Shown: positions 2,531 through 27,894 of the stretch, in pieces
Layout of the letters: every line of letters starts with the position of its first letter
How positions within the stretch are numbered: position 1 is the stretch's first letter
Made by a program: the position numbers and the translations under genes
Origin: Nitrososphaera viennensis EN76
GTDB taxonomy: Archaea > Thermoproteota > Nitrososphaeria > Nitrososphaerales > Nitrososphaeraceae
NCBI RefSeq assembly: GCF_000698785.1
Contig: NZ_CP007536.1
Span: forward strand, 510,001-542,000
DNA: 32,000 bases
Direction of reading: 5' to 3'
The notes under the pieces: generated by a model
The model's database searches: none
What the model saw: the letters and a program-made list of their open reading frames with translations, nothing else
What the model was told of the DNA's origin: nothing

Positions 2531-2552
2531 AATGTGATTTTCGTCCAGATGT

Positions 2553-3740: not shown

Positions 3741-5036
3741 TCATTCTAGCATTTCGCGAAGCTCTTCGTATTCTTCTTTTGTGATTTCTCCTTTCGCCAG
3801 ACGCATCTTTAGAACAAGAAGAGGGCTTTCCCTTGTCTGAACAGTTTCCGTCTTTTGGCCTGCCTGAATGTTTGACGTAGGTGCTGTCTGAGGAGAAGAC
3901 TTTTCTTGAAGCTTTACTAGCTGATTGTAGAGTTCGGCGGCGAATTCCCTGATAGCCTTTCCTCTAAATGACGTTACGCCAAACCTAGGCGATTGCGGAA
4001 TCCCATTTTCATCAACATAGGGAATTACTAGGTGATGCTCTTTGCCAGATTCATGAATAAAGCCCGTTCCTCCGAATACTCCATCTACAGGCGAACTGCC
4101 AATTCCTGAAACTTGTTGTCGTCTTGTTTTCTCCTCTATACTATAGCTTCCGACATCAATGCTTGCTAATGGAATTATGATGCTCCAGCGTTTAGAGAGA
4201 TCCTTTTCGTTTTTTGTGAATATAACGTGTTTTTCAGTAAGATAGAGCTTGCCTAATTCTTCCTTTGAGAGGAGCCCACCAGCTAGGTAGGCTTTATGAC
4301 CTCCATAGTATGAGGCGACTTCTCCCTTTAGAAGAATCTTGCCATATTGTTTGTGAAAGCAAGATACGCAGAGATTATCAGACTTGACAAAGAATGACTG
4401 TTCATTCTTCAGGCAAACAGAACAGGGCTTAGAGGGCATTTCGGGAGCTAATTCTTGAATTTCAGAAGTTGTAGTCTGCGTGCTTTCGATCTCCTTAGGC
4501 TTTTCGATAGATTTCGTCGAAAGGTTTCCTATCATCAGTCCTATAGTAGTGCTAACTTCATCAAGCTCTTTCCCTACATCAAGAATAAGAGATTCCTGTT
4601 TGTCTCCATTAAGAAAGTCGATCTGAAGATATCTACTTTCTGAAGTCTTACGGAGTCCTATTGTAATGATCATCTTCTTTAGGGAAGCTTCATTCTTAGA
4701 GACTATCTTGGAGCCTCGGATATCTTTAGATTTGAATGAAATGTAGAGATCATCTTTGCTCTTTTCTTTGTTCTTGAATCTGAAAACTACCTTGTTGATT
4801 TGGTCAAAAAGGAGAATCGACAGAAACCCATCCATCTGAACAGGGAGTTGTGAATGTCCTCCTACGTACGTCACTTCGTATTCTTTGATTCCATTCTTGA
4901 TAGTCTCGAAGCATGAATGACAGAGCTTGCCTTCGAATTCCCAGATCTCTTCAGAATCATGGCTTCTCAGACCTAGCGGTTTATGACATCTTGAACATTC
5001 CTTGTCCTTCTCACGAATGTTCTTAATGAAGCTCAA
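3741..5036 (-). CDS. duplicated zinc-ribbon plus PH/GRAM-like protein with C-terminal SHOCT motif
   Basis: 431 aa with a TTG start. There are two CxxC...CxxC ribbons (CSRCH...CHSC and CSVCL...CVSC). Each is followed by a Y.GGH beta-rich module (second copy: LYLTEKHVIFTKNEKD...). The C-terminal LAKGEITKEEYEELREMLE matches the SHOCT short C-terminal domain. Confidence 0.7.
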   Translation of the reverse strand: MSFIKNIREKDKECSRCHKPLGLRSHDSEEIWEFEGKLCHSCFETIKNGIKEYEVTYVGGHSQLPVQMDGFLSILLFDQINKVVFRFKNKEKSKDDLYISFKSKDIRGSKIVSKNEASLKKMIITIGLRKTSESRYLQIDFLNGDKQESLILDVGKELDEVSTTIGLMIGNLSTKSIEKPKEIESTQTTTSEIQELAPEMPSKPCSVCLKNEQSFFVKSDNLCVSCFHKQYGKILLKGEVASYYGGHKAYLAGGLLSKEELGKLYLTEKHVIFTKNEKDLSKRWSIIIPLASIDVGSYSIEEKTRRQQVSGIGSSPVDGVFGGTGFIHESGKEHHLVIPYVDENGIPQSPRFGVTSFRGKAIREFAAELYNQLVKLQEKSSPQTAPTSNIQAGQKTETVQTRESPLLVLKMRLAKGEITKEEYEELREMLE

Positions 5037-5063
5037 TCGGATGCCATATTATATGGCTGGTAT

Positions 5064-5189
5064 TTACCTTTTTTCTAGTTTATCGTCCCGGAACTTTGGG
5101 TCGTTGGCAGGCTGCAGTTTTGTAGTTCTTGAACGTTTCCATCTATAGATAAACGGGTAGGCCGCCAATGTGATTATTGCCGCAATCAT
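5064..5189 (-). CDS. candidate 41-aa small membrane protein (below ORF-track cutoff)
   Basis: Hand translation gives MIAAIITLAAYPFIYRWKRSRTTKLQPANDPKFRDDKLEKR: one hydrophobic helix plus a basic tail. No other support. Confidence 0.25.
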   Translation of the reverse strand: MIAAIITLAAYPFIYRWKRSRTTKLQPANDPKFRDDKLEKR

Positions 5190-13611: not shown

Positions 13612-14046
13612 CTACCATCTCCTCTCAAAGTAAGCACCACGCATCCCTACGCCTCCGCAAAAGCTGCCGTGAACCTCGACGACATCTGGTGAATCCGAAA
13701 TTTCCTTCAGCATTTCGAGTGTCAGTTTCTGGTTGGTTACATAATGGGTGCCCTTGTCAAATATTGCAGGTGCCATTCCTGTTTTGGATATTATGTACTG
13801 CCTTGCAGCTTCAGCATCAATTCCCTCTTTTGTGAATACCTCAATGGTGTAAGATAGTGGCTCTTCTCCTTCTCCTCCTTCTCCGCTTGCGCGGGTTCTT
13901 TCCAGAATGTCATTGATCAGCGCAGGGTCTACTTTTGGTAGCACGTTCTTGTACGCATCGCGCACTTCACTGAATTTGCGCCTAACCTCGTCCACACCTC
14001 CTCTTCCTCCTTCAATCACAGTCTTCTTCATCAATGTTTGAGACAT
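13612..14046 (-). CDS. hypothetical cytoplasmic protein
   Basis: 144-aa ORF, first gene of a three-gene minus-strand cluster. No recognisable motif. Confidence 0.55.
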   Translation of the reverse strand: MSQTLMKKTVIEGGRGGVDEVRRKFSEVRDAYKNVLPKVDPALINDILERTRASGEGGEGEEPLSYTIEVFTKEGIDAEAARQYIISKTGMAPAIFDKGTHYVTNQKLTLEMLKEISDSPDVVEVHGSFCGGVGMRGAYFERRW

Positions 14047-14158
14047 GGTATTGATATGCAGCCAGAACGATATTAAGCCCGAATTAACAGAGTTGCCAGA
14101 CCCATTAACTTTGTTAAGTGTTAGAATATAAGCAGACTGTCAAGAAAAGTATCCTCAT

Positions 14159-14938
14159 ATGGGCGATGACAAGGCTGCTGCTGATTCTCCTTCATCTTCT
14201 TCACCACCACCATCATACTCTACCATACTGGCTACCAGGTATGGAGGGGAAGCCCTAAAGCTCTTACGCTCTGCCTCGCGTTCATTGAACTATGTCATCT
14301 ATGTTGTCGCCGCGCTGGTCGTCTTTTCCCTCCTTGACCTGTTTGGTGTTCTATATCAATTCAGGCTGTATTCTGAGGTGCAGCACGACTACATAATATC
14401 AATAATAGCGCTTGTCCTTCTCGGCGTGCTCTTTCCGCTTGTTTGGCGAGTAATCAAGGCAAGGACTGCGCTTGATTCTTGGCAGGATATCTTTGAGCAC
14501 GGGTCTCTTCGATGGGCGATAAGCATGGCAATGGCACGGCGTGACAAAGGCGAGGCTCTAAAGGCTGTAGCAGAGGCCGTACCAGAGCTTGAACCTCTAA
14601 GAGAGTACCTTGCAAGTGAAGGAACCTCAAAATTTACCGACGTGAGCGTTGCTGGAACCACCACCTTCGATTGTCTTGTAGATGAAAGCTTGGTGGAGAC
14701 TGAAGAGCTGAAAAGGCTTTTGAAAGAATACGGTGCCATCGCAGTGGCCTTGACTGACGTGGCAGATGCATCTTACATTCAAGAATTTAGCAAGAGAATC
14801 AAGACGTATTCCAACAGCACGGGCCGCAAAGTAGCCATCGCAGTAGTCGTGGCCAGGGCGATAAAAGGCAGAGAAACCCATCGAGCCGCAGGTGATTCCA
14901 TGCTGTTGCTGGTAGAAAAGGCCAATAATAGTGACTGA
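14159..14938 (+). CDS. hypothetical membrane protein (two TM helices, Ser/Pro-rich N-terminus)
   Basis: 259-aa ORF with an ATG start. Two hydrophobic helices (YVIYVVAALVVFSLLDLFGVL and IISIIALVLLGVLFPLVW). Confidence 0.55.
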   Translation: MGDDKAAADSPSSSSPPPSYSTILATRYGGEALKLLRSASRSLNYVIYVVAALVVFSLLDLFGVLYQFRLYSEVQHDYIISIIALVLLGVLFPLVWRVIKARTALDSWQDIFEHGSLRWAISMAMARRDKGEALKAVAEAVPELEPLREYLASEGTSKFTDVSVAGTTTFDCLVDESLVETEELKRLLKEYGAIAVALTDVADASYIQEFSKRIKTYSNSTGRKVAIAVVVARAIKGRETHRAAGDSMLLLVEKANNSD

Positions 14939-15735: not shown

Positions 15736-15809
15736 GGTCACGTAGCTCAGCCTGGCAGAGCGGCTGACTTGTAATCAGCAGGTCGTGGGTCCAAATCCCA
15801 CCGTGACCT
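15736..15809 (+). tRNA. tRNA-Thr, anticodon TGT
   Basis: A cloverleaf was folded by hand. Acceptor stem is GGTCACG/CGTGACC and D arm is GCTC-AGCCTGGCA-GAGC. Anticodon stem is GCTGA/TCAGC with loop CTTGTAA. T arm is GTGGG-TCCAAAT-CCCAC. No encoded CCA and no intron. Confidence 0.9.
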
Positions 15810-16576: not shown

Positions 16577-17484
16577 TCCTCTGCCTCCTTGCCGACAAGA
16601 AAGACAAAGACGTCGTCAAGCGTGACTGGCGAGACCGTGAACGGCAGGTTCCGGCGTATCGCAAGCTCGGACAGCTCCCTTACGGAAGATTCGTACGCAA
16701 ACACGCGCAGCATGCCGGCGCCCGTGTCCACCACCGAGCCGTACGACTTCAGCGCGTCGCCGTCAAGGCCGTCCTTGGCGATGTCCACCCTCGTGTTGTG
16801 CGGTATGACCCTGCGCAGTTCCTGTATCGTGCCTTGCGCGATTATCGACCCGTTGTCCACGATCACGATATAGTCGGAAAGCATCTCTGCCTCGTCCATG
16901 TAGTGCGTCGTCAAGAGTATCGACCTGCCCTTTGCCTTCCAGTCCTTTATCGCCGACCAGACCTGCCTCCTCGACACGGGGTCAAGGCCTATCGTGGGCT
17001 CGTCGAGGAACAATAGTTGTGTATCAACGGCCATCGCCATTGCGACCAGTATCTTTTGCTTCATGCCGCCGGACAGGTTCATCGCCGGCCTGTCGCGGGC
17101 CTCCCAAAGCTCCAGCTTGCGCAAAAACTCCTCCGTCTTGTCCCTTGCCGACGCCTTGCTCTCGCCCCTTATCTGGAGCCAGTTGTAGACGTGGTCCCAC
17201 GGCGTCAATGCGCGCAGCGGCCTGCCCTCCTGCGGCACGATGGATACCAGGTTTCGCACCTCCTTTGCCTGCCTCACCACGTCGTAGCCGAGCACCTTTA
17301 TCGAGCCGGAGGTCGGCATGAGCTGCGTCGCGCACATCCTCACAAACGTGGTCTTGCCTGCGCCGTTTCTGCCAAGGAGCGTAAAGACCCTGCCAGACTC
17401 TACCTTCAGCGACACTTCAGAGAGCGCCGGGCGGCTGGAACCCTTGTACACCTTTGTTACGCGCTCGGCCTCTATTGCAAGCAC
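16573..17484 (-). CDS. ABC transporter ATP-binding protein (DrrA/ABC-2 exporter type)
   Basis: Walker A GRNGAGKTT, signature LSGGMKQK, Walker B LLFLDEPT, H-loop TTHYM. Confidence 0.95.
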   Translation of the reverse strand: MLAIEAERVTKVYKGSSRPALSEVSLKVESGRVFTLLGRNGAGKTTFVRMCATQLMPTSGSIKVLGYDVVRQAKEVRNLVSIVPQEGRPLRALTPWDHVYNWLQIRGESKASARDKTEEFLRKLELWEARDRPAMNLSGGMKQKILVAMAMAVDTQLLFLDEPTIGLDPVSRRQVWSAIKDWKAKGRSILLTTHYMDEAEMLSDYIVIVDNGSIIAQGTIQELRRVIPHNTRVDIAKDGLDGDALKSYGSVVDTGAGMLRVFAYESSVRELSELAIRRNLPFTVSPVTLDDVFVFLVGKEAEE

Positions 17485-17909
17485 AGCAATGGATGATACA
17501 CGCTGCTCTAATGTAGAGCTTTTGAAATGAAACCAACCATAAATCCTTCAAAAATAGCGAATGCCGTTTGCAAAAAAAGCGGTTACGGCATTTTTTTGCC
17601 GCGGTTAGCAGGCATTTTGCAGGAAGAAATTGCGGCGAGCGCGTTTTACAACTTTTTTGACACAATCTTGTACATAACAAGTAGAGTTTTTGCCCCTAGA
17701 GCCGGGCAATAGACGGGTTATCGACGAGCCTTTTAAGCAAAGGCGCCAAATATACCCTGTCAGGACCAACTAACTGACGACAACAACAAAAACATCATCT
17801 GCCCTTCGTAGACCAGACCAATCCCCGGGATGCCCCTGTCAAGTTCTGGCAGGGCGCCTCCTGGCTTCGATATGCAAATAAGCCCCATTTTGCCAAGTAG
17901 TACCACATA

Positions 17910-18233
17910 ATGAAAAGAGAGTTCATAGTGGCCCGCATTGAAGCTTCCCAGGACGGCAGCCCGTACGTCTATGTCACGTTCAACGACCCAAAGGACTACA
18001 AGCCCGACAGGCCCATGAGCCCCTTTGGCCAGAACACCATGGCGTTTTCTTCCATAGAGGAGATGATGAAAAACATGCCAAAGGTGATGGCAAGCATGCC
18101 CGGCATGTTCGGCGGCGGCCTTACCGACACCCCGGTCATCAAGGCGAGCATGAAGGAGTACCAGGACATGGGGATAAAGGTCGGCGACAAGGTCACAATC
18201 GAGATCCAGAAGGTAGAATCGACGGGCGTCTGA
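17910..18233 (+). CDS. hypothetical protein
   Basis: 107-aa ORF with an ATG start and a Met-rich central segment. No recognisable family. Confidence 0.55.
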   Translation: MKREFIVARIEASQDGSPYVYVTFNDPKDYKPDRPMSPFGQNTMAFSSIEEMMKNMPKVMASMPGMFGGGLTDTPVIKASMKEYQDMGIKVGDKVTIEIQKVESTGV

Positions 18234-18240
18234 GCCCTTA

Positions 18241-18249
18241 ATTTAAATA
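18241..18249 (+). promoter_or_regulatory. TATA box (ATTTAAATA) for the site-2 protease gene
   Basis: Box centre is about 29 nt upstream of the TTG at 18274, which supports that start and a leaderless transcript. Confidence 0.45.
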
Positions 18250-18273
18250 CGCATTCAGCGGTATACCTGCTGT

Positions 18274-19518
18274 TTGGAACAGCAGCGAAAGGTGCGCGCA
18301 GAGGTAAAGCTGCCTCTTATACTCATACACACCCCGTTTGGCCTGGACTTCTTTGACAGGGTAGCCAGGGCTCCCGGCGCAAAGGCATGGGCCAGCATAA
18401 ACACGTACTTGATGCCCGTCATAACCGTCCTTGCGATTTTCCTCATAGTAGGCTCGCTTGCGGTGCTCTTTTCAAACGCCGACGCAAGAACCAGCATCCG
18501 CGGGGTAGGACCGACGGCAAACCTGCTCATACCCGGCCTCAACCCGTACCTGCCCATAGTGGAGGGGTGGGTGGCGCTTGTGGTGACCATCATAATCCAC
18601 GAGGCAGGCCACGGCATCATCGCCAGGGTCTACAACATCCGCGTGGACTCGACCGGGCTCGTGCTGTTCCTCGGGATACCGATAGGCGCATTTGTCAATA
18701 TTGAAAGAGATGAGCTTGCCAAGGCGACCCTCAAGCAAAAGAGCGCGGTGCTGACGGCAGGCCCCCTCAACAACATGATACTTGCAGGCGTCTCGCTCCT
18801 TGCGCTTTTCCTGGTGATGTCGACGCTCACCCCGCTGCCGCCGGCTCCCGGCGAGCCCCAGTTCGGAGTGGCTGTCATCAGCGTCAACCCCGGCTCGCTT
18901 GCCCAGTCCATCGGGCTTCCGCAGGGCGCCGTCATACAGGAGGTGGCAGGCCAGGAGGTCAAGAAGAATGAAGATCTAGGTCCCCTCCTTCGCGCCAACC
19001 TTGGCCAGACCATCGACATTACATGGGTCGAGGGGTCCGGCGGCGACGGCAACACCGCTTCTTTTGCGACAGTGACAAAGTCAGTGACACTTCCCGACGC
19101 CGTAGAGCCCGGCAAGGGCACGCTTGGCATTACAGTGGCGACTATAGATACCACTGGCGCAGTCCTTGAAAGGTACAAGGGCGCATTCAGCTCCAACCCA
19201 CTTGCCATACTCCTCCCGCCAACTATTCAGGAAGGAATCGTGCCATACTCTCAGCTGATGACTCCAAAGTACGAGTCGTCCATCGGCTCTGTGTGGTCGC
19301 CTCTGGCAAACATGCTGTTCTGGCTGTGGTTTGTCAACTTTAACGTCGGCATATTCAACGCGCTGCCGATAGGCCCGCTCGACGGAGGCCAGCTGTACAA
19401 CTCGCTCATTGAAAAGAAGATCAAGTCGCAGATAATGGCCAAGAACGCCACCACGATGCTCACGATACTGATGGCGGTAATCGTGGCGGCGGCGATACTG
19501 CTCCCGTACGTGATATAG
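18274..19518 (+). CDS. site-2 protease family (M50) membrane metalloprotease with PDZ domain
   Basis: HEAGHGIIAR (HExxH) in a TM helix, a PDZ-like insert (ISVNPGSLAQSIGLPQGAVIQEVAGQEV) and a C-terminal NALPIGPLDGGQL motif. Confidence 0.9.
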   Translation: MEQQRKVRAEVKLPLILIHTPFGLDFFDRVARAPGAKAWASINTYLMPVITVLAIFLIVGSLAVLFSNADARTSIRGVGPTANLLIPGLNPYLPIVEGWVALVVTIIIHEAGHGIIARVYNIRVDSTGLVLFLGIPIGAFVNIERDELAKATLKQKSAVLTAGPLNNMILAGVSLLALFLVMSTLTPLPPAPGEPQFGVAVISVNPGSLAQSIGLPQGAVIQEVAGQEVKKNEDLGPLLRANLGQTIDITWVEGSGGDGNTASFATVTKSVTLPDAVEPGKGTLGITVATIDTTGAVLERYKGAFSSNPLAILLPPTIQEGIVPYSQLMTPKYESSIGSVWSPLANMLFWLWFVNFNVGIFNALPIGPLDGGQLYNSLIEKKIKSQIMAKNATTMLTILMAVIVAAAILLPYVI

Positions 19519-19527
19519 AGACGTACG

Positions 19528-19816
19528 GAGAAGCAGCTGCAGGGATTAACCCGGATATTGAGAGAACAATGTGGAATCCCTAACGAGGCAGGCAGCGATT
19601 CATGCAAAGGATGAGCTGGTTAGCCCGGTTGTAAAAGGTCTAGGCATAAGAATCCACAAGGTAACAATCCTGAATGAAAAGGATTGTATCAAGGTCAAGC
19701 AGAAAAGCTGGCTTGACAAAAAGGATTGGGTAGAAATTCACGACATTCTAAGAGTACAAGGGTTTAGTTTGCTTGCAAATGGAAAGGATAGCTGTTGGAT
19801 AAGACATATTCAATAG
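19528..19816 (+). pseudogene. truncated, frameshifted 3' fragment of a transposase gene related to 22351-23823
   Basis: 19574-19816 aligns codon-for-codon with 23581-23823 (81-aa ORF versus the last 80 aa of the 490-aa transposase). Weaker homology continues upstream to about 19528 (AAGIN...) in a different frame and is closed by a stop. Everything 5' of that is absent. Confidence 0.7.
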
Positions 19817-19863
19817 CAGAGGAGACTACAAAAATCCAAAATTAACTGCTGATACGCTCCTCT

Positions 19864-20451
19864 TCATCGAACATATTTAGGAGAAACCTTGATCATCAGT
19901 TCACCGCAACAGGGGCATTTGAAAGCCATCCTGTCTCCCCAATAGCTAAAGACAGTCATGCAATTCGGACACTTGCACATCTTATCACGATATACAAGTT
20001 GTGGATCTCTTATTATTTGTGGCAAAAAGTCTTTCTTTGCAGTAGGAGCCCGAACGTCGCTAATGTAATCAGCGATCTCAAAGTCTCGTCGAGACGAAAG
20101 TGGGTGTGGAAAATAGTGATTTAGATAGGGGACGGCAAAATCAACTCCTTCCTCGTTAAAGACATAGACAGGTTTTTGTGGAATTGAGGCAGCGGCAACG
20201 CCAATCTCGAACGCAACCCAATTCCTGGTATGCATTATTGAAGCCACATTTTTTGTCAGGATTACAAAAAGCGCCTTTGATTTGGTTATCTCTTTCCTTA
20301 TCCATTTCCAGTTGGGTTCTTTATTCCTGTGCCATCCCTCATATTCCATAGCCACTGCCTTAACACCAGTATCTTTGAAAGCGTTGTGAAAGAACTTCAT
20401 GATCTCTGTATCTGAAGCACTATGAGAGATGAAAATGGTTTTTGCTGACAT
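19864..20451 (-). CDS. TIR-like domain protein (DUF1863/ThsB-like) with C-terminal zinc ribbon
   Basis: 195 aa. The N-terminal TIFISHSASD strand, KSKALFVILTKNV, then NWVAFEIGVAAA...KPVYVF reproduce the prokaryotic TIR-like layout including the conserved Glu. The C-terminus has CKCPNC...CPCC. Call made by eye. Confidence 0.65.
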   Translation of the reverse strand: MSAKTIFISHSASDTEIMKFFHNAFKDTGVKAVAMEYEGWHRNKEPNWKWIRKEITKSKALFVILTKNVASIMHTRNWVAFEIGVAAASIPQKPVYVFNEEGVDFAVPYLNHYFPHPLSSRRDFEIADYISDVRAPTAKKDFLPQIIRDPQLVYRDKMCKCPNCMTVFSYWGDRMAFKCPCCGELMIKVSPKYVR

Positions 20452-20470
20452 TTACTCTATGTCTAGAAAG

Positions 20471-20554
20471 AGTCCTGTCGAGATCAAGGGCGATTCCATC
20501 GTTTTTGCTGGCTGTCGAGAGTCGGGCGATTTTGTCGAAGGCAGGGCGATAAGT
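20471..20554. repeat. left copy of an about 84-bp imperfect inverted repeat (partner at 24705-24788)
   Basis: Hand alignment with the reverse complement of 24705-24788 gives 78 of 84 positions identical. The outer boundary at 20471 is abrupt. It contains three copies of TGTCGARR-N3-4-GGGCGATW starting at 20476, 20513 and 20533. Confidence 0.85.
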
Positions 20555-21027
20555 CAGATGTCAGAAGTTGAGGATAATGCTTTCTTGCGGCCAAGTATCA
20601 GGAAAAACCCGACCCAGCCGACCAACGTCAGAGCAAGGAACAAAATCCCGCCTGTTTCTGACGCATAAAAGTCATAATAGAAAGCCTCCAGGAAGCTCTT
20701 AGGAAATTCGGCTACTGCTTGGCCTAGACAGGCTATCAGAAACCCCTTGTAGAAGGGTTTGGTTTTGAAACGCGTGTAGACTACTAGCGGCGATAACGCA
20801 CCAATCGTGCCAAAGAAACCGCCGAAGAAGCGCATGAGTCGGACATCGCTCTTAGAATTGAGGCAAATGGCGTCAATTCCTGTATTAGTGGGCGGTCCGA
20901 CTTTTGCTGTACCGCCGTATGTCTCACAAATTACCTTGTGCCCTATCTCATGGAAATATCCAATTGGCAAGACCGTTATGGCAAATCCCAAGACTGCAAA
21001 CATTGCGACTCGAATATCAAAACGCAA
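20554..21027 (-). CDS. membrane-embedded HExxH protein (DUF3267-like putative zincin)
   Basis: 157 aa with 3-4 hydrophobic helices. HEIGH follows directly after the first helix (FAITVLPIGYFHEIGHKV). TTG start. The stop codon overlaps the inner edge of the left inverted repeat. Confidence 0.6.
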   Translation of the reverse strand: MRFDIRVAMFAVLGFAITVLPIGYFHEIGHKVICETYGGTAKVGPPTNTGIDAICLNSKSDVRLMRFFGGFFGTIGALSPLVVYTRFKTKPFYKGFLIACLGQAVAEFPKSFLEAFYYDFYASETGGILFLALTLVGWVGFFLILGRKKALSSTSDI

Positions 21028-21070
21028 GTTATCTAGAAGACTTTTAGCTATCCTTTAACCATATTGAAGA

Positions 21071-21184
21071 ATGCAGCCGGGCGGCTATTATTATGAGTTC
21101 ATGCTGATAGCAACCTTTCTTGGTATAGGATTTGGCCTAGGGTATTCGTTCATTCATTTGCTGAGAAAGTATCGAAAAAGCTAA
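21071..21184 (+). CDS. candidate 37-aa single-helix membrane peptide (below ORF-track cutoff)
   Basis: Hand translation gives MQPGGYYYEFMLIATFLGIGFGLGYSFIHLLRKYRKS. An AT-rich box lies about 26 nt upstream. Weak support. Confidence 0.2.
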   Translation: MQPGGYYYEFMLIATFLGIGFGLGYSFIHLLRKYRKS

Positions 21185-21340
21185 AAAGTAGCTTGTACTA
21201 ATTTTATCTTGGACACCCAAAGGAAAAAAGGACTCGCCGATGACCCTACCAATGGGATATGGCGGTAGGTAGTGCCATCGGCCTTGTCTTTTGGGTGTCT
21301 GCTCTTTTGGAACAGACAGATTGTACGGCACTATCGGTGT

Positions 21341-21517
21341 TTAGACTAGTCGACGGCCAAGGAGGCCGACTCCTACGCCTATGGCGATAAACAATGCTCC
21401 AAGCCAGTAGACATTGCCAAAATTCCCTATGAATGTGGCTTTGTCTGCCAGTGTCGCTCCGAGCATCGTCATTGCTCCCGTTCCCGACAGTGTTGCTATA
21501 GCTTTTTTTATAGCCAT
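21341..21517 (-). CDS. candidate 58-aa small membrane protein (below ORF-track cutoff)
   Basis: Hand translation gives MAIKKAIATLSGTGAMTMLGATLADKATFIGNFGNVYWLGALFIAIGVGVGLLGRRLV. A TTTAAATA box at 21542-21549 (minus strand) sits 25-32 nt upstream of the ATG. This reading is preferred over the Arg/Ser-rich 96-aa ORF in another frame. Confidence 0.4.
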   Translation of the reverse strand: MAIKKAIATLSGTGAMTMLGATLADKATFIGNFGNVYWLGALFIAIGVGVGLLGRRLV

Positions 21518-21576
21518 GCGCGCGTCCTACCGTCAAGGCAGTATTTAAAGTTTAAATATCTTTACTTTGTCTTCAC

Positions 21577-22248
21577 TTAGTTCCGCTCGAACAGGTCATC
21601 CCAATGGTCAACAACATCCTTGATTATCTTATCCCTATTATCGATCAGCGTTTGTTTTATTTTTGGGTCTTTCTCTTCCCTGATGCGCATATCCAACGCT
21701 TTTGGAAAATCGACTTCTATGACGATTCTGATTTTGCCATCTGACATCACAGCCTTTTTCTTTATCATTTTTGCTACGAGCTCGGCAATTTCTTCCAACA
21801 GCTTAGGGTCTATGTCCATCTTGGTAGGCAGCCACAAAGTAACAGAAGACCGTAAAGCTTGGCCGACCGCGTTTGCAAACGCTCCAAGATCCTTTTTCAC
21901 GTAACCTCTAACAACTAATGCTGGTACTTGTGCAGCTAGCTTCTCTTCTAACGTGTATTTCTTTCCAAGCGACATCAATAGTACATTGATTGCTTCGAGA
22001 TGACGCTTGCGCGCATCATCGACAGGGCGAATATTTGGAACAAGCTCAACGAACTGTTTTCCTGCTTCTGTTGTCTCGTAAAATCCTTGATCCGTCTTGG
22101 CTATCAGTTCTTTACCTTGCAAATCGTTGAGGTGCACCATCAACGTTGGCTCTGTTTTACCAGTTATTTTCACAAGTTCGCTCCAGGACTTTGGGATTAC
22201 GCATGACTCTAGGATAGTCGCCTTAGTTTCCCCGATTTTTTGCGACAT
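21577..22248 (-). CDS. winged-helix transcriptional regulator with uncharacterised C-terminal domain
   Basis: N-terminal TILESCVIPKSWSELVKITGKTEPTLMVHLNDLQGKELIAKTDQGFYETTEAG is a wHTH. The start is placed at the second ATG (22248) because a TATAAGTA box (22272-22279, minus strand) lies about 24-31 nt upstream. The maximal ORF begins at 22269. Confidence 0.65.
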   Translation of the reverse strand: MSQKIGETKATILESCVIPKSWSELVKITGKTEPTLMVHLNDLQGKELIAKTDQGFYETTEAGKQFVELVPNIRPVDDARKRHLEAINVLLMSLGKKYTLEEKLAAQVPALVVRGYVKKDLGAFANAVGQALRSSVTLWLPTKMDIDPKLLEEIAELVAKMIKKKAVMSDGKIRIVIEVDFPKALDMRIREEKDPKIKQTLIDNRDKIIKDVVDHWDDLFERN

Positions 22249-22282
22249 CTGCCAAATACACTTCCTCATCCTACTTATACCG

Positions 22283-22347
22283 TACTAAGTATAAGAACTT
22301 TGCTTTGTCTTAGCAAAGTTTATTAAGATACTTAGTATATACTAAGT
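22283..22347. promoter_or_regulatory. operator-like palindromes in the divergent regulator/transposase promoter region
   Basis: A perfect 18-bp palindrome ACTTAGTATATACTAAGT (22330-22347) sits between a TTTATTAAG box (22319-22327) and the transposase ATG. An extra TACTAAGT half-site is at 22283-22290. A perfect 9-bp inverted repeat AACTTTGCT-N7-AGCAAAGTT is at 22296-22320. Confidence 0.5.
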
Positions 22348-22350
22348 TGC

Positions 22351-23823
22351 ATGGAACCCACTGCCCACCAACCCGATGCACGCGAAATGAAAGGTCTTGC
22401 TATGGCAAAGGATGTCAGCCAGAAAAAGTCCGATGTTGCCATACAGCTTCTAAATGAAATGACCTACAAGGTGAGGTCGCAGTCAGACATCAGCAAATGG
22501 TACATGGTCGTTCGGACAGAGGGCGCATGGACGTGCGACTGTCCAGATTCTACCTATCGCCATGTAACCTGCAAGCACATTCATGCGGTACTGTTCTCGA
22601 AGGCATTTAGAAAGAAGGTGTATGAGGATACGCTATTCCAGACACCGGTAAACCAGCACATCATCAACGAATCAAACGAGCTTGGCAAGATTGTTTGCCA
22701 ACGCTGCGCAAGCGGCAACTACGTAAAATGCTCGGTTCGCCACACGAAAAAAGCGGGCGACATTCAACGTTATCAGTGCAAAGATTGTGGATACAGATTC
22801 ATTGTCAACCCAGCATTTGAACATGCAAAAGTAACTGCTAGGATAATATCGGCGGCAATCGACCTCTATTTCAAGGGTGTTTCGCTCAGGAAAATAGAGG
22901 ATCATGTTTTGCAGTCTTTCAACGTCAAGGTGGACCATTCGAGCGTAGCAAATTGGATTCGCCGCTTTAACAAGGTAGTCCAGCCTTACGTGGATTCATT
23001 CGTGCCCGTGCAGGTTGGCGGCGTTTACCATGTTGATGAAATGCTAGTACATGTAAGAAAGGAGCATAACGACGCTACTATGAACCTGAATAACAAAGAA
23101 AACCATACCTTTAGGAAATTCGACAACCACTATAGCTGGCTATGGAACTTGATGGATTCAAGTACTAGATTTTGGATATGCTCCAAGATTACCCAAAAGC
23201 GTACGGGCGATGTGGCTCGCTCTGTCTTTAAGGAAATGAAGCAACGCGCCCCGCTGCCACGGGCGATAGTGCATGATGGCCTGCGCTCGTACGATGAAGC
23301 ATACACCCGCGAGTTGTACACGAGGGAAAAGCCACAAATCCAGAATGTGAGAAGCGTCGGCTCTAACGAAAAGGGCTTGAACCCTAAAGTCGAGCGCCTT
23401 AACGGAACGGTAAGAGACCGCGAAAGCGTAATGCGCGGCATGGACACGGCGGAAAGCGCGCAGGAGCTCATGGACGCAATGCAGATTCATTACAATTTCA
23501 TTCGAGGCAATCAGGCCATAGGGGGTCAGACACCGGCTGAAGCAGCAGGCATTAACCTCAACCTGAAAGAAAACAAGACGGAATCTTTGATGAGGCAGGC
23601 GGCGATTCATGCAAAGGATGAGCTAGTTAGCCCGGTCGTCAAAGGACTTGGCATACGCATTCACAAGGTAACAATCCTGAATGAAAAGGACTGCTTAAAG
23701 GTCAAGCAGAAGGGATGGCTTGACAAAAAGGACTGGGTAGAGATTCATGATATACTACGTGTACAAGGTTTCAACTGGTTAGCGAACGGCAAAGATAGCT
23801 GTTGGCTCAAATTGATTGTTTGA
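22351..23823 (+). CDS. DDE transposase (IS6/IS240-like, tentative) with N-terminal SWIM zinc finger and zinc ribbon plus an about 80-aa C-terminal extension
   Basis: SWIM motif WTCDCPDSTYRHVTCKHIH and ribbon CQRC...CKDCGYRF. DDE-type blocks are YHVDEMLV, WLWNLMDSSTRFW...KR, AIVHDGLRSYDEAY and KVERLNGTVRDRESVMRGM. The C-terminal module is duplicated at 19574-19816. Confidence 0.8.
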   Translation: MEPTAHQPDAREMKGLAMAKDVSQKKSDVAIQLLNEMTYKVRSQSDISKWYMVVRTEGAWTCDCPDSTYRHVTCKHIHAVLFSKAFRKKVYEDTLFQTPVNQHIINESNELGKIVCQRCASGNYVKCSVRHTKKAGDIQRYQCKDCGYRFIVNPAFEHAKVTARIISAAIDLYFKGVSLRKIEDHVLQSFNVKVDHSSVANWIRRFNKVVQPYVDSFVPVQVGGVYHVDEMLVHVRKEHNDATMNLNNKENHTFRKFDNHYSWLWNLMDSSTRFWICSKITQKRTGDVARSVFKEMKQRAPLPRAIVHDGLRSYDEAYTRELYTREKPQIQNVRSVGSNEKGLNPKVERLNGTVRDRESVMRGMDTAESAQELMDAMQIHYNFIRGNQAIGGQTPAEAAGINLNLKENKTESLMRQAAIHAKDELVSPVVKGLGIRIHKVTILNEKDCLKVKQKGWLDKKDWVEIHDILRVQGFNWLANGKDSCWLKLIV

Positions 23824-24671
23824 TGAAAAAGGTTATTGGGATGCCAGATTTTACCAATTCGATGAATCTTGGTAAAATCTTCGATGAGATTTCCAAGAAG
23901 ATGGTTGTCGATATAAATGAAACAAGAAAAGCGATTGACAAGCACCCGGGTTTGAGAGGAGAGTCTTTCGAGGAAGTAGTCCGTGAATTCCTTGAAAAAT
24001 ATCTACCAAAAGCCTTTGCAATCTCAAAGGGATTCATAGTTGATTCCGATGGCAAACAGTCGAAGCAATTAGATGTAATAATTTCAGATGCGATGAATAG
24101 TCCTATCTTTTATCAAAAGGGCGAAAACCGGGTATTGCCTGTTGAGTGTGTTTTTGCAGTAATAGAAGTCAAAGCACGATTAGATTCTGTCGAGCTTGAC
24201 AAGGCAGTTGATAATATGCTAAGCGTACGTAATTTAACCAAGAAAGCCTTTCGTACGGTGCCATCGTATCAGCCCCTCTTTCGTTCCATAGGTTTGTATG
24301 GAAAGGAAGATTGGATAGGCTACCCAATCAATTACTTCGTTTTTGCTTTTGATTCCATCGATTTGAAGCATCTAACAAAATTATTAGACAGGAAACATAA
24401 GGCGCATAAATTGCCCGAATGGTCACGAATAGATGGGATATATGTGTTAGGAAAAGGTATGGTGACCAATTATATCGAATATGAGTATGATGACAACCGT
24501 ATACCTCCATTGCACATAATCAGGACTTTGCCAGAGCCAAAATCAAAGGTCACATCAATAAAATCGCGGCGATCATTACTCCTGTTTTATCAGGATCTCA
24601 TGGACTGTCTTTCAATGGCAGAAGTGAAAAACTTCATTTTGCCTGACTATACTTACCGACTACGCTTCTGA
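23823..24671 (+). CDS. DUF6602-like PD-(D/E)xK nuclease-fold protein
   Basis: GLRGESFEEVVREFLEKYLP...GFIVDSDGKQSKQLDVIISD...PVECVFAVIEVKARL gives the D...E-x-K restriction-endonuclease-like core. Its ATG overlaps the transposase TGA (TGATG). The maximal ORF starts at a TTG at 23802. Confidence 0.7.
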   Translation: MKKVIGMPDFTNSMNLGKIFDEISKKMVVDINETRKAIDKHPGLRGESFEEVVREFLEKYLPKAFAISKGFIVDSDGKQSKQLDVIISDAMNSPIFYQKGENRVLPVECVFAVIEVKARLDSVELDKAVDNMLSVRNLTKKAFRTVPSYQPLFRSIGLYGKEDWIGYPINYFVFAFDSIDLKHLTKLLDRKHKAHKLPEWSRIDGIYVLGKGMVTNYIEYEYDDNRIPPLHIIRTLPEPKSKVTSIKSRRSLLLFYQDLMDCLSMAEVKNFILPDYTYRLRF

Positions 24672-24704
24672 AGGAATCAATAGGTAAATTTTCGGTAAAC
24701 CATA

Positions 24705-24788
24705 ACTCATCGCCCTACCTTCGACAAAATCGCCCGACTCTCGACAGCGAGGAAAATCGAAGGAATCGCCCTTGATCTCGACAGGACT
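24705..24788. repeat. right copy of the about 84-bp inverted repeat (partner at 20471-20554)
   Basis: See the left copy. The outer boundary at 24788 is abrupt. Flanking sequences are unrelated. Confidence 0.85.
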
Positions 24789-24909
24789 GGAGAGCAGTAT
24801 GCTTTTATATCTGCAAGTGGGAGTTACGCTTGACTTATAGCTGGCTTGTGCCGAGGCATTTTCTACAGCACAATACTTGGCATAGCCGGACGAAAAATGA
24901 GGCAAGAAC

Positions 24910-27015
24910 TTGGAAAAAAACGAAATAGAAGGATTTGAAGAAGAAAGGCAGACTCAGACCCAGCGCAGGCCCCGGCCGGAGCAGATGCAGAGGCGGCCCG
25001 CGCAAGATGTAGCTGCCGCCCACGTGACCAAGGTCACGACGGAAAGCGAGGACGCTGTCGCAAAGATAATACTGCAGTCGATACCGGCTGACTCGCAGGT
25101 AACAAACGTCAGGTTCGAGGGCCCCAACATTGCGCTGTACACGAAAAACCCCAAGTTTGCGCTCACCGAGTTGACCTACTACCTTTCTTCGCTTTCAAAG
25201 ACCCTGAAAAAGAGGTTCATAATACGCACGGACCCGTCGGTGCGCCTGCCAGAAGACGCCACGCGGCAGGCAGTGGTGAAGCTCCTGCCAAAGGACGTGC
25301 AGGTGTCGGCGGTGTTTTGCGACGACGCTACGGGCGAAGTGGTCCTTGAGGTAAGCAAGCCGGAGGCAATCGACCCGGCCATGATAGTAGAGATAGCCAA
25401 GTCCACGGGCTGGATTGCCCACACGAGGCGCTCGCCCCACATACCGTCTACCAGCATCAACACCATACATTCGACGCTCAAAAGTTCTGCAAAAGAACGC
25501 TCGGACTTTCTCCAAAAGCTCGGAAGGAGGCTGTTCCGGGGCTCACTAGTGGTCGGCAACGTGCCGGAGAACGGCGGCAACGGCAGGAGCGAGCAGGCGT
25601 CCGACGTCGTCTTGCCTCCAAGGCCCCAGTGGTCGCAGAACCGCGAAGAAGTGATGCTGTTCTGCCTCGGCGGGGTCAAGCAGGTGGGGCGCTCGTGCTT
25701 TATCGTAGTCACGCCGGAAAGCAAGGTCATGCTTGACTGCGGCATAAACCCCGGCGAGATGTCCGGCCTTGACGCATACCCGCGAATCGACTGGCTCAAC
25801 TTTAACCTTGACGAGCTTGACGCAGTAGTCATCAGCCACGCCCACATCGACCACCAGGGGTTCCTGCCGGCGCTCTTCAAGTACGGCTACCGCGGGCCGG
25901 TGTACTGCACCGAGCCGACGCTGCCGCTCATGACGCTCCTGCAGATGGACTCGGTCAAGATCGCAAACTCTAACGGCACGTACCTGCCGTACGAGGCAAG
26001 GGACGTCCACGAAGTCATAAAGCACACGATAACGCTCCCGTACGGCAAGCCGACAGACATTTCTCCAGACATCACGGTCACTTTGAACAACGCCGGCCAC
26101 ATCATGGGCAGCGCGACGGTGCACCTGAACATCTCTGGCGCGCACAACATACTCTACTCCGGCGACTACAAGTTTGCACGGACGCAGTTGCTTGACAGCG
26201 CGGTGGCGACGTACCCGAGGGTCGAGACATTGATCACGGAAAGCACGTACGGCAACTCGTCTGACATCATGCCCGACCAGGCATTCGTGTACAGGACGTT
26301 TTCAGAGTCGATAAACAAGGTGCTGTCGGAGGGAGGCAAGGTCCTCATACCGGTGCCGGCAGTCGGCAGGGCGCAGGAGATAATGCTGGTGATGGCAAAG
26401 GAGATGAGCGAAGGCAGGCTCGTCGAGTCGCCAATATACATCGAGGGCATGATATCCGAGGCAAGCGCGATACACATGTCGTACGCGCACTACCTTGGAG
26501 CAGACGTGCGCAGGTCTGTCTCGCAGGGCATAAACCCGTTCACGTCCGAATACTTCACGGTCATCAGCGGGGGCAAGCGCGAAGAGGCCATAAACGACCA
26601 GAACCCGGCGATAATCATGGCGACGTCCGGCATGCTCGAAGGCGGCCCGTCCGTCGAATATTTCAAGGAGCTTGCGCCAAGCCCCAAGAACAAGATAATC
26701 TTTGTCTCGTACCAGATAAACGGCACGCTTGGCCGGCGCGTCCTTGACGGCAACGTCTCTGAGGTCAGCATGATGGACAAGTCCGGGAAGGTCAAGGTCG
26801 TTCCAGTCAGGTGCCAGACGCAGAAAATCGACGGCTTTTCCGGCCACAGCGACTTTAACCAGATAATGAACTTTGTAGCCAAGATCAAGCCAAAGCGCGT
26901 TCTTGTGAACCACGGCGAGAGGACCAAGTCAGAAAACGTCGCAAGCGCGATATATTCGCGGCTAAAGATACGTTCCGGCGTCCCGGACAACCGCGAGATT
27001 GTCCGCCTGCGGTAA
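24910..27015 (+). CDS. archaeal CPSF1-type ribonuclease (two KH domains, metallo-beta-lactamase, beta-CASP); aCPSF1/FttA-like
   Basis: N-terminal KH-like region (NVRFEGPNIALYTKNP), the HAHIDHQG HxHxDH motif, and downstream beta-CASP blocks (ESTYG, GRAQE, SGHSD). TTG start; the exact start is uncertain. Confidence 0.93.
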   Translation: MEKNEIEGFEEERQTQTQRRPRPEQMQRRPAQDVAAAHVTKVTTESEDAVAKIILQSIPADSQVTNVRFEGPNIALYTKNPKFALTELTYYLSSLSKTLKKRFIIRTDPSVRLPEDATRQAVVKLLPKDVQVSAVFCDDATGEVVLEVSKPEAIDPAMIVEIAKSTGWIAHTRRSPHIPSTSINTIHSTLKSSAKERSDFLQKLGRRLFRGSLVVGNVPENGGNGRSEQASDVVLPPRPQWSQNREEVMLFCLGGVKQVGRSCFIVVTPESKVMLDCGINPGEMSGLDAYPRIDWLNFNLDELDAVVISHAHIDHQGFLPALFKYGYRGPVYCTEPTLPLMTLLQMDSVKIANSNGTYLPYEARDVHEVIKHTITLPYGKPTDISPDITVTLNNAGHIMGSATVHLNISGAHNILYSGDYKFARTQLLDSAVATYPRVETLITESTYGNSSDIMPDQAFVYRTFSESINKVLSEGGKVLIPVPAVGRAQEIMLVMAKEMSEGRLVESPIYIEGMISEASAIHMSYAHYLGADVRRSVSQGINPFTSEYFTVISGGKREEAINDQNPAIIMATSGMLEGGPSVEYFKELAPSPKNKIIFVSYQINGTLGRRVLDGNVSEVSMMDKSGKVKVVPVRCQTQKIDGFSGHSDFNQIMNFVAKIKPKRVLVNHGERTKSENVASAIYSRLKIRSGVPDNREIVRLR

Positions 27016-27076
27016 AAAATCCTCCACAGCGTTTTTTACCCCGTATATCCAATAGTGTGTGCGGGTAGAGACTCTG

Positions 27077-27217
27077 ATGGCTATTAGGTACAGGTGCGTC
27101 AACTGCAACATTGTTTTGTCAGGCGAGGGGGCCTCCAGGCACTACCTTGCAAACCCGACGCACAAGCTCGAAAAACTGCCGCCACCGCCAAAGCCGGTGA
27201 AAAGCCCCACTAGGTAA
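27077..27217 (+). CDS. candidate 46-aa C2H2 (U1/JAZ-like) zinc-finger protein (below ORF-track cutoff)
   Basis: Hand translation gives MAIRYRCVNCNIVLSGEGASRHYLANPTHKLEKLPPPPKPVKSPTR, with C-x2-C-x10-H-x6-H spacing. Confidence 0.45.
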   Translation: MAIRYRCVNCNIVLSGEGASRHYLANPTHKLEKLPPPPKPVKSPTR

Positions 27218-27288
27218 CATATTATTACTGCACGTCAGCCTCTGGAAATATCATAGAACGACTCGTCGGCGAGCTTTTATAACATGAC

Positions 27289-27894
27289 TTGCCTCGTAAT
27301 TCATTGACTGCAGCAGCAAGGCGTACGGAAGAAGAAAAAGAAGAGTTTTCCAGCGACGCGGTCGGGCAGGGATTTGATCCCAAAGAGGCCGCCGAGGCGG
27401 TAAAGGGAGTGGCAAAAAAGGTACGGGACACTTCTCAGACAGTCAGGAAAACCGCAAGCACTTTCCGCGAGAGCGGCGCGGTGGATGAGATGGCAGAGGC
27501 TGCTCGCGACGCGGCGTTTGCAGCGCGCGACACGACGCGCAGCATCAGAGACACCACAGAGGACATCCGGAAGAGCGGCGTTATTGAAGACACCGCCGGC
27601 GCCGTAGAGCAGACGGCATCGGCGGCATTTGAGACAGCCGAGATGGCCAGCCACGCGCCAAAGCGGTTTGCAAAGTCGGCTCCGAAAACAACGAGGGCGG
27701 CAAGACGGCGCGCCAAGGAAATCAAAAGGCAAGGCAGGGCGGCGGCGCGCCGTACAAAAAAGATAACCCGAAAAGAAGGCGCAAAGGTAGACCGGAATAT
27801 CCGCAAGGCAGGGCGGCGCGTCAAGTCGATATCAAAGGGCTTGAGGGCAAAAGCAAACGTCGCAAAAAGAAAGGGCAAGAACAGGAGAAAGTAA
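27289..27894 (+). CDS. hydrophilic repeat protein with strongly basic C-terminus
   Basis: 201 aa. Recurring RDT/RKT-containing helical repeats and a Lys/Arg-rich tail. A TTTTATAA box at 27275-27282 fits a leaderless start at the in-frame TTG at 27304 better than at 27289. Confidence 0.5.
   Translation: MPRNSLTAAARRTEEEKEEFSSDAVGQGFDPKEAAEAVKGVAKKVRDTSQTVRKTASTFRESGAVDEMAEAARDAAFAARDTTRSIRDTTEDIRKSGVIEDTAGAVEQTASAAFETAEMASHAPKRFAKSAPKTTRAARRRAKEIKRQGRAAARRTKKITRKEGAKVDRNIRKAGRRVKSISKGLRAKANVAKRKGKNRRK

Follow-up and report, generated by a model that had tools for sequence, protein, structure and literature searches.

The genome of the model soil ammonia oxidizer Nitrososphaera viennensis EN76 carries an AT-rich stretch of 5.4 kb between the genes for S2P and aCPSF1. 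It lies at positions 19519-24909 of the 32,000-nucleotide (nt) region analyzed here (contig NZ_CP007536.1, 510,001 to 542,000), which we call the window. This stretch is foreign DNA, and the locus is best read as a transposon-built accessory islet, probably of the passenger-rich, long IS6/ISDsp3 kind, that carries independent single genes, two of them with defense-type domains. Our preferred explanation, to which we assign a probability of roughly 0.7, is that at least two generations of one long IS6/ISDsp3-related transposon family have filled an insertion hotspot, together with unrelated passengers. The younger and complete unit (20471-24788) holds a transposase, a nuclease, a divergent winged helix-turn-helix (wHTH) gene, and a membrane gene set between 84-bp ends. 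The older copy, to its left, survives as the last ~290 nt of its transposase gene with a TIR-zinc-ribbon gene beside it. The features of the islet, from S2P to aCPSF1, are as follows (ORF, open reading frame; aa, amino acids).

19519-19816, plus strand: transposase 3' remnant; ORF 19571-19816 (81 aa), homology from ~19527
19864-20451, minus strand: protein with a TIR domain and a C-terminal zinc ribbon, 195 aa; 'TIR domain-containing protein' at NCBI
20471-20554, no strand: left end (IRL), tip at 20471, three sub-repeats
20554-21027, minus strand: HExxH membrane protein NVIE_006520, four helices, M50B/DUF3267-like; start may be 21003 or 20991
21071-21184, plus strand: micro-ORF NVIE_006530, 37 aa, single transmembrane segment, annotated with this exact sequence
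21341-21517, minus strand: 58-aa exported or membrane protein AIC14858, from the ORF listing and annotation
21577-22269, minus strand: wHTH protein NVIE_006550, 230 aa, N-terminal winged helix, divergent from the transposase gene
22270-22350, no strand: spacer between wHTH and transposase genes, 81 nt, two palindromes, candidate operator/promoter
22351-23823, plus strand: transposase, intact, 490 aa (1,473 nt), with SWIM, zinc-ribbon, HTH, and DDE regions and an 85-aa C-terminal extension
23823-24671, plus strand: DUF6602/NucC-like PD-(D/E)xK nuclease; start overlaps the transposase stop (TGATG)
24705-24788, no strand: right end (IRR), tip at 24788
24789-24809, plus strand: host junction, 13 nt (GGAGAGCAGTATG) and then the aCPSF1 TATA box CTTTTATA (24802-24809)

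An 84-nt Inverted Repeat Bounds a 4.3-kb Unit

A preliminary description of the window, made from its letters without database searches, overlooked an 84-nt inverted repeat (20471-20554 and 24705-24788; 78/84 positions identical, 93% complementary). This repeat encloses 4,318 bp (20471-24788) with the HExxH gene, the two micro-ORFs, and the wHTH, transposase, and nuclease genes. The TIR gene and the transposase fragment fall outside the unit. Each arm carries three ~20-nt sub-repeats of the form TGTCGAr-N4-5-GGGCGAT. The arms have no Rfam match and no significant RNA fold (z scores from -1.6 to +1.6), so we rejected a structured-RNA reading; they look like protein-binding DNA.

The outer tip of the arms resembles the terminal repeat of IS6 insertion sequences (IS), published as a GG tip and then cTGTt (PMC7986276). 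The window tip AGTCCTGTC fits the IS6 register GGnnCTGTT, although it begins with AG, not GG, and is accompanied by two further internal sites in the 84-bp repeat. Read at the outermost site, the ends of the window (AGTCCTGTCGA) and of two related loci, L010 (GGCGCTGTTGC) and L049 (AGTTCTGTTGC), are in register with the IS6 tip. The tips AGTCCTGTCGAGA (window) and GGCGCTGTTGCGT (L010) fit this register as well, and G7 is invariant in seven ends.

We built a sequence-only model from these seven ends and searched it over 1.48 Mb of fetched loci. The left arm of the window, itself one of the seven members, scored 72 bits. Outside the S2P/aCPSF1 junction, the model matched L097 and L092/L093 only. 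The L097 end directly follows a DUF6602 homolog; the L092/L093 end begins 6 nt past the stop codon of a TIR homolog, with three sub-repeats and an ACAGAAC tip visible. All of these loci also hold remnants of the last 25-35 codons of the transposase. Since arms stand at or next to transposase remnants elsewhere, we read them as the ends of a passenger-carrying ISDsp3-like element.

The ends of the window, L005, L049 (two), L010, and L097 share a tip, a spacer, site 2, and site 3, with site sequences specific to each lineage. Modules of the same layout occupy the same position in L049, L007, L010, and L026 with other site sequences (e.g., CACGCGG-N3-4-GCAACA), and all three sites of an arm vary together between lineages. 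In L005, the closest relative, the same right arm lies upstream of aCPSF1; homology stops exactly at its inner edge, and the DNA inside it is unrelated to the window. A 1.2-kb unit in L007 (4462-5706) has 33-nt inverted ends (94% complementary), RTX calcium-binding repeats, and no transposase, and looks like a non-autonomous derivative of the family. The ends in L049 (4260-4341 and 5956-6037) and in L010 (9532-9600 and 9803-9874) are in direct orientation with cargo between them, a pattern expected if new copies insert on the promoter side and displace older ends.

End types do not follow the host tree. By aCPSF1, L049 is sister to the window, yet its end matches the L007 end at 43/44 positions and the window end at only ~58%. 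Similarly, L026 carries an end that its sisters L025 and L027 do not. This incongruence makes several independent arrivals at the junction likely.

A different reading of the repeats takes them as operator arrays or recombination sites, serving, for example, the wHTH protein or an invertase that flips the 4.15-kb segment. In this view, the island would be no more than old DNA from horizontal transfer. The three direct sub-repeats of an arm do resemble protein-binding arrays, and archaeal activators bind where the right arm lies, a short way upstream of the aCPSF1 TATA box. No target duplication is present, the two copies in L049 are direct rather than inverted, and sub-repeats that change together between lineages would fit any co-evolving DNA-binding protein. 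We nevertheless consider this reading unlikely. In register, the outermost site agrees with the consensus for IS6 tips. The modules accompany this transposase or its remnants at unrelated loci (L097 and L092), and insert-free aCPSF1 promoters lack them. Profile scans of the island detected neither an invertase nor an integrase gene; the other end-bearing loci have no wHTH homolog. We thus prefer to treat the arms as transposon ends.

The Islet Occupies an Insertion Hotspot between S2P and aCPSF1

The G+C content (GC) of 19519-24909 is 0.443, versus 0.531 in the remaining window. This is the lowest-GC 5.4-kb stretch of the window, and 0.4% of sliding windows are equally low. GC drops within ~80 nt past the S2P stop codon (19518) and recovers at the aCPSF1 start; the final feature of the island ends at 24788, 122 nt upstream of that start. 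GC at third codon positions (GC3) is 0.40-0.56 for island genes and 0.73-0.81 for S2P, aCPSF1, purL, and a 107-aa gene. Both measures agree with the preliminary description, which had the composition changed from the S2P stop to about 120 nt before aCPSF1. Its hand counts of G+C (22 in 20221-20280 and 35 in 8101-8160) were exact on recount, and the ORF listing contains every ORF that it named, each in its place. Its view of an accessory, horizontally acquired island on a transposon scaffold is likewise upheld.

We compared 80 loci around aCPSF1 from other Nitrososphaeraceae (locus numbers begin with L), 68 of which contain both S2P and aCPSF1. The two genes are adjacent in 54 of these 68, with a median gap of 171 nt, which answers in the affirmative whether they stand side by side where the island is absent. 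The remaining 14 loci have unrelated inserts of 0.45-9.3 kb at this junction, including the following.

L006: helicase and Eco57I/MmeI-type methylase
L007: RTX calcium-binding protein
L010: receiver-domain gene and other ORFs
L049: two ORFs of 212 aa and 251 aa, the 251-aa one without a Pfam match
L055-L059: HVO_A0261-type wHTH

The variety of these inserts marks the S2P/aCPSF1 junction as a hotspot for variable DNA. Core genes that are adjacent in relatives, with variable and unrelated content at their junction, are what defines a genomic islet, and both are seen here. Homologs of the TIR, HExxH, wHTH, and DUF6602 proteins were found in none of the 80 aCPSF1 loci of relatives; the N. viennensis cargo at this junction is particular to this species. 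The largest insert, in a Nitrososphaera metagenome-assembled genome (L006, 548-9900; 9.3 kb), contains a C-terminal helicase fragment, a response regulator, and methylase pieces whose ORFs appear to be split; it resembles a defense island of the restriction-modification type in decay.

Where no insert is present, a conserved TATA box (GCTTTTATA) follows the S2P stop codon after only 10-25 nt; it is located ~100 nt upstream of where aCPSF1 starts. This TATA box and the downstream leader are kept in all relatives. Integration linked to a tRNA gene was rejected, as the only one in the window is 4 kb from the island: tRNA-Thr (TGT) at 15736-15809 was the sole RNA gene detected in a tRNA scan of the window and an Rfam search of 17000-27500.

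The Transposase Probably Belongs to a Long IS6/ISDsp3-like Family That Leaves 3' Remnants

The intact gene at 22351-23823 had been described as a SWIM-DDE transposase, and this assignment holds: Pfam matches DDE_Tnp_IS240 (9.5e-10, above cutoff) and SWIM (21.7 bits, cutoff 19.6), and a DDE+R motif is present. Residues D229, D309, E348, and R355 and cysteines C116, C119, C143, and C146 are common to ISCpe7 and an archaeal homolog. The 85-aa C-terminal extension is absent from ISCpe7 and from the 30%-identical archaeal homolog in L094. Krupovic et al. (2019), using ISfinder-based typing, list CP007536 532351-533823 as IS6 with 48.58% to ISDsp3 (Table S3; PMC6563490), and their catalog contains other ISDsp3-like IS6 entries in the N. 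viennensis genome. These coordinates agree with a window at 510001-542000 of EN76, and exact-protein lookups likewise led to N. viennensis (CP103305.1, CP104300.1). Krupovic et al. report no multigene integrated element at the island, the nearest being NitVie-E2 (552849-561758). ISDsp3 is the only IS6 member so far noted with a passenger gene.

A minimal IS was dropped from consideration, as no terminal inverted repeats lie directly around the transposase gene (22150-22450 versus 23650-23950). A search of PDB sequences with the transposase gave nothing usable, scans of IMG/VR with the nuclease, the transposase, and the end motif returned no relatives, and a JGI metagenome scan with the C-terminal domain of the transposase returned no match.

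To the left of the unit, the preliminary description had noted a decayed transposase fragment. That call is corroborated: over 238 nt, the fragment directly repeats the 3' end of the intact gene (23568-23805) with 82% DNA identity. The fragment is 88% identical to the transposase C terminus at the protein level, with a proportion of synonymous differences (pS) of 0.62, near saturation, and a dN/dS of 0.07. The near-saturated synonymous sites point to an older, diverged copy rather than a recent duplication. We rejected the idea that the fragment is a selected stand-alone gene, because a dN/dS of 0.07 fits equally well with divergence while both copies were full length. Upstream of the fragment ORF, the homology is interrupted by an indel and the frame is broken. 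This, together with the varying length of remnants elsewhere, favors decay.

Such remnants, 25-115 codons long and always from the 3' end, occur in L010, L049, L092, L097, and L101; those in L010 and L049 lie at the S2P/aCPSF1 junction. Remnants of the 3' end alone are consistent with deletions that removed the transposase from its left side and spared the passenger and the promoter-side end. The L010 remnant (8608-8868) continues in frame into 24 codons from the beginning of a gene that looks flavodoxin-type (MEAIILYYSRFGNTEKIAKSLEAG...) and marks a deletion junction.

A NucC-like Nuclease Follows the Transposase Gene

The gene overlapping the transposase stop encodes a protein that matches Pfam DUF6602 (2.9e-31). 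PADLOC profiles for a CRISPR-associated PD_DExK protein (6.9e-41) and the NucC effector (2.6e-33) match its N-terminal half only. The first 130 residues align to PDB chains of NucC (6uxf/6p7o) at an E value of 7e-17 with the D...EVK residues conserved; the match spans NucC residues 5-132 and leaves the C-terminal half unaligned. The Pfam and NucC matches substantiate the earlier call of a DUF6602-like PD-(D/E)xK nuclease. No cyclase gene is present in the island, and the protein is probably a stand-alone or signal-gated DNase. Homologs form 116 clusters and are mostly solitary in varied bacterial and archaeal contexts. In L097, a DUF6602 homolog lies between a transposase remnant and an end, and its start likewise overlaps the stop of the remnant (ATGA); both nucleases begin with MKKVI.

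This conserved junction raises the alternative that the nuclease is part of the transposition machinery, a second-strand nuclease working with the DDE transposase as in Tn7. TnsA of Tn7 is a PD-(D/E)xK enzyme, and the several transposase-type sites per end are also like those of Tn7. We regard this as very unlikely on five counts. First, most DUF6602 homologs are solitary, with no transposase nearby. Second, the L097 transposase is down to 35 codons while the nuclease gene beside it is intact. Third, the closest solved relatives are NucC defense nucleases, not TnsA. Fourth, the older copy in the window has a TIR gene, not a nuclease gene, after the transposase. Fifth, the homologous transposase of L094 has no nuclease partner. 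The nuclease is better explained as a passenger.

The Older Copy Is Accompanied by a TIR-Zinc-Ribbon Gene

The TIR protein falls just below the Pfam TIR_2 cutoff (27.9 bits, cutoff 28) and just at that of CAP12-PCTIR_TIR (24.7), and matches the PADLOC ThsB profile weakly (1e-6). It belongs to a family of 24 clusters from Nitrososphaerales, all ~190-210 aa, and TIR_2 matched 18 of 20 family members (best 3e-10). The AlphaFold2 model (pLDDT 84.5) has a TIR fold, with top Foldseek matches in the PDB to SEFIR, SPARTA TIR-APAZ, SpbK, RPS4, and RPP1 (probability ~1); a PDB sequence search gave nothing usable. C161, C164, C179, and C181/182 are conserved as expected of a zinc ribbon. Together, the family matches, the modeled fold, and these cysteines vindicate the TIR/zinc-ribbon assignment of the preliminary description. 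E82 is invariant in an NWVAFEIG helix and, by motif position, would be the equivalent of the catalytic glutamate, and the protein is probably an NAD-cleaving enzyme.

We collected 34 contexts of TIR homologs, five from exact-protein lookups and 29 from a metagenome scan. In three syntenic groups, its neighbors are HflX, MoaE/MoaC, or RadA genes. In L092/L093 it is preceded by transposase remnants, and in L094/L095 the 30%-identical transposase homolog is nearby. No ThsA-type gene was found in the island or in the examined neighborhoods of the 34 contexts.

L094 also contains three copies of a 19-nt, partly palindromic motif (CTATTGATAGAC...; 7381-7969). They lie between the distant transposase homolog, an HxlR-type wHTH gene, and the TIR homolog, in a layout unlike that of the 84-nt ends, and may be operators.

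The Remaining Passengers Are Small Membrane Proteins and a wHTH Protein

The HExxH protein itself has no Pfam match. An exhaustive search of 1.8 billion representative proteins returned 42 relatives, in which H26, E27, H30, C34, and C55 are invariant and E114 is nearly so. Among 38 relatives, nine matched Peptidase_M50B, three M50, and one DUF3267, and the UniRef name is DUF3267. The invariant HExxH motif and these family links support the earlier view of a membrane zincin at the family level. The AlphaFold2 model (pLDDT 95) has four membrane helices and a hairpin, with weak Foldseek resemblance in the PDB to RseP and SpoIVFB only. From its sequence, we suggest that this protein may be a small intramembrane protease. 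Its gene occurs in three other Nitrososphaera contexts, in each case without other island cargo.

Both of the micro-membrane ORFs proposed earlier are present, NVIE_006530 (37 aa, plus strand) and the 58-aa ORF (minus strand). The latter has a TATA-like ATATTTAAAC ~40 nt upstream and, from consecutive GenBank accessions, is probably NVIE_006540. NVIE_006540 is listed among the highly transcribed proteins of N. viennensis with one transmembrane segment (PMC10030591), so at least part of the island is strongly expressed. Downstream of the 58-aa gene, 21200-21310 (minus strand) folds into a hairpin with a U-run (minimum free energy -39.2 kcal/mol, z score -4.8, matched by 0/200 shuffles) that contains an inverted repeat (21212-21227/21284-21299). 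It may represent a terminator, a small RNA, or a palindrome resembling a miniature inverted-repeat transposable element. A 64-aa ORF at 21137-21331 was rejected as a gene: it overlaps the hairpin, is not hydrophobic, and is not annotated.

The wHTH assignment stands, weakly, for the N-terminal winged helix (E values of 1e-3 to 1e-5); no domain was assigned to the C-terminal two-thirds. The matches are to HTH_45 (5.6e-4), ArsR-type HTH_5 (1.7e-3), the C-terminal wHTH of Csa3 in PADLOC (5.7e-5), and Sso10a/MsvR (4e-4), and a sequence search of the PDB revealed no relative. The spacer to the transposase gene contains an inverted repeat (22267-22292/22328-22353) with palindromes of the TACTAAGTAT type and AACTTTGCT-N7-AGCAAAGTT, which are candidate wHTH operators and hint that the wHTH protein may be autoregulatory, as the preliminary description had proposed.

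The Passengers Show No Sign of Forming One System

The preliminary description had suggested that these genes might make up a single new immune system. This was not supported: TIR, zincin, and DUF6602 genes are never together in ~45 other loci encoding a homolog of one of them, and none of the 34 (29 + 5) TIR-homolog loci has a zincin, wHTH, or DUF6602 homolog. The sole conserved linkage of the cargo is with the transposon family, in the overlap of nuclease and transposase genes and in the TIR homologs near ends, remnants, or transposase homologs. The passengers are independent single genes, and one co-evolved system is not supported.

As a multi-gene anti-virus system, the island would use the TIR protein to sense infection or make a nucleotide signal, the nuclease and/or the zincin as effectors, and the wHTH protein for control. 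Thoeris, CBASS, Pycsar, and type III CRISPR systems do draw on TIR proteins and NucC-like nucleases, as PADLOC and PDB matches reflect; invariant E82 would fit an active TIR domain; and clear defense genes occupy the same junction in another genome (L006). We find such a system highly improbable. Apart from the lack of co-occurrence, its genes are on different strands, the TIR gene is not part of the unit between the inverted repeats, and their differing GC3 suggests separate origins. Elsewhere, TIR and DUF6602 genes each stand alone beside decayed transposon remnants. Pfam and PADLOC profile scans found no ThsA, SIR2, SLOG, CD-NTase, or Cas10 gene in the island, and in this the preliminary description, which saw no SIR2, SLOG, or other known receptor of TIR signals, was right. 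We return to the view that unrelated passengers accumulated on a transposon scaffold.

Proposed Assembly of the Islet by Successive Transposon Copies

We propose that the transposase binds the three sites of each end and moves or recombines the ends in the fashion of IS6, by copy-in or by targeted recombination next to an existing copy. Either route would also explain the absent target duplication. Passenger genes would be carried in the space that separates the transposase gene from the ends. Deletions would then erode the transposase, with useful passengers and the promoter-proximal end being kept.

Several observations weigh against this reading. No 8-bp target duplication flanks 20471/24788 (CTAGAAAG versus GGAGAGCA), the complete 4.3-kb unit did not turn up a second time, and an exact-protein lookup showed that this transposase protein is encoded once in the genome. 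Given the missing duplication and the single transposase copy, we infer rather than observe movement of the whole unit. The arms are 84 bp long with three sites, versus 15-20 bp described for IS6 ends, and the L092 end match is marginal alone (E value of 0.011). The NCBIfam IS6 profile scores the transposase at 93.6 bits, below its cutoff of 125, and Harmer and Hall question the family membership of long and archaeal "IS6" elements. The left-end tip is 19 nt from the start codon of the TIR gene, which lies outside the unit, and no TATA box is visible in between; the TIR gene may be transcribed by read-through from the HExxH gene. In addition, many comparison contigs are short, so the absence of partners counts for less there.

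A target duplication is also missing around the L007 element. Short-read assemblies of N. viennensis (L088, a 4,236-bp Logan contig, and also L089-L091) break exactly at both 84-nt arms. The simplest account of the separate 4.2-kb inner contig is that the inverted repeat disrupted assembly; it is not evidence of excision.

The position of the ends relative to promoters is constant. On the aCPSF1 side, the tips of the window, L005, L007, L010, L049, and L026 lie 13 nt before CTTTTATA, and the L097 tip lies 12 nt before CTTTATAT of a different gene, for a carbohydrate kinase. At least two host lineages thus show the fixed spacing at aCPSF1, and one further gene shows it as well. Only 10-25 nt of neutral sequence separate the S2P stop from the TATA box, and selection by itself could limit surviving insertions to that place. 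That the spacing is the same in at least two or three independent events hints that targeting may be real, perhaps through the BRE/TATA region or bound TBP/TFB. Ty3, which reads TFIIIB, offers an analogy. Taken to its full extent, the idea would make the ISDsp3-like family a promoter-targeting cargo shuttle of ammonia-oxidizing archaea that inserts 12-13 nt before TATA boxes, stacks copies, and spreads single-gene defense modules, perhaps with the nuclease as a TnsA-like partner. In this extended form, we hold it to be a doubtful, speculative proposal. If the spacing does reflect targeting, it could provide a tool for an archaeal group still without genetics.

Of this islet, the 2019 catalog of EN76 mobile elements lists nothing but a single "IS6" transposase gene. 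A possibly useful addition is that this transposase belongs to a bounded, passenger-carrying unit of 4.3 kb. TIR and NucC-like genes recur as passengers of the family, an example of single defense-type genes moving in Nitrososphaerales, and the S2P/aCPSF1 junction is a place to look for variable genes. The locus also advises caution: defense-type domains that come together on a mobile scaffold need not form a system.

Other AT-Rich Patches in the Window

Further low-GC patches lie at 2501-5000, about 14000-14500, and 17501-18000, so the island is not unique in kind. The patch at 2500-5100 (GC 0.39-0.43) may be a second accessory islet. On its minus strand are genes for proteins of 259 aa (2648-3427; weak match to HEPN) and 431 aa (3741-5036; GRAM and SHOCT domains).

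Comparison with Known Systems

Among the passengers, the TIR protein is like Thoeris ThsB and the stand-alone TIR proteins SpbK and AbTir in its fold, its conserved glutamate in a W-x-x-F-E helix, and its small size. It differs from Thoeris in that no ThsA or other signal receptor lies near the gene in any of the 34 contexts, and from ThsB, SpbK, and AbTir in its C-terminal zinc ribbon, which is specific to this small Nitrososphaerales family. The nuclease shares with NucC, the cA3-activated effector of CBASS and type III CRISPR, its N-terminal 130 residues, the D...E-x-K motif, and a similar total length (about 255 aa in most DUF6602 homologs). It departs from NucC in a C-terminal half that fails to align, in the lack of an adjacent CD-NTase or Cas10 gene, and in homologs that are mostly solitary. 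The HExxH protein is like M50B, DUF3267, and site-2 proteases in having HExxH in the first of four helices, an acidic residue in a later helix, and relatives that match M50B. Compared with site-2 proteases, it is much smaller (~155 aa) and lacks a PDZ domain, it has two invariant cysteines in an extracytoplasmic hairpin, and it has no significant match among solved structures.

Tn7-like transposons offer long multi-repeat ends, a fixed site beside an essential gene, tandem stacking, and defense-type cargo (PMC8649781), and the window unit resembles them in all four. However, the window unit has neither a TnsC/TniB ATPase nor TnsD/TniQ, its transposase is IS6-like and not TnsB, and its nuclease is NucC-like and not TnsA. 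In IS26-type pseudo-compound transposons and translocatable units, as at this locus, passengers accumulate beside existing copies and arrays lack target duplications; IS26 likewise shows no 8-bp duplication when it has moved by targeted or recombinational events. In L049 and L010, cargo is similarly flanked by directly repeated element ends. In the window, by contrast, the cargo lies inside one inverted pair of ends, and elsewhere ends and 3' remnants are all that survives. No two complete IS copies flank the cargo, and an IS26-type mechanism would be putative in an archaeon.

The best annotated relatives of the transposase are IS6 elements, and the unit is most readily compared with ISDsp3, ISCpe7, and the other long IS6 elements (clades h/i; Varani et al. 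2021). With these it shares a DDE transposase extended at its N terminus by an additional zinc finger and another domain, and a tip motif of the G..CTGT type. Its ends are 84 bp long with three sub-repeats, versus 15-20 bp; its transposase has an 85-aa C-terminal domain that ISCpe7 and the L094 homolog lack; it lacks an 8-bp target duplication; and its host is an archaeon. Like ISDsp3, the window unit carries passengers, five or six ORFs versus one.

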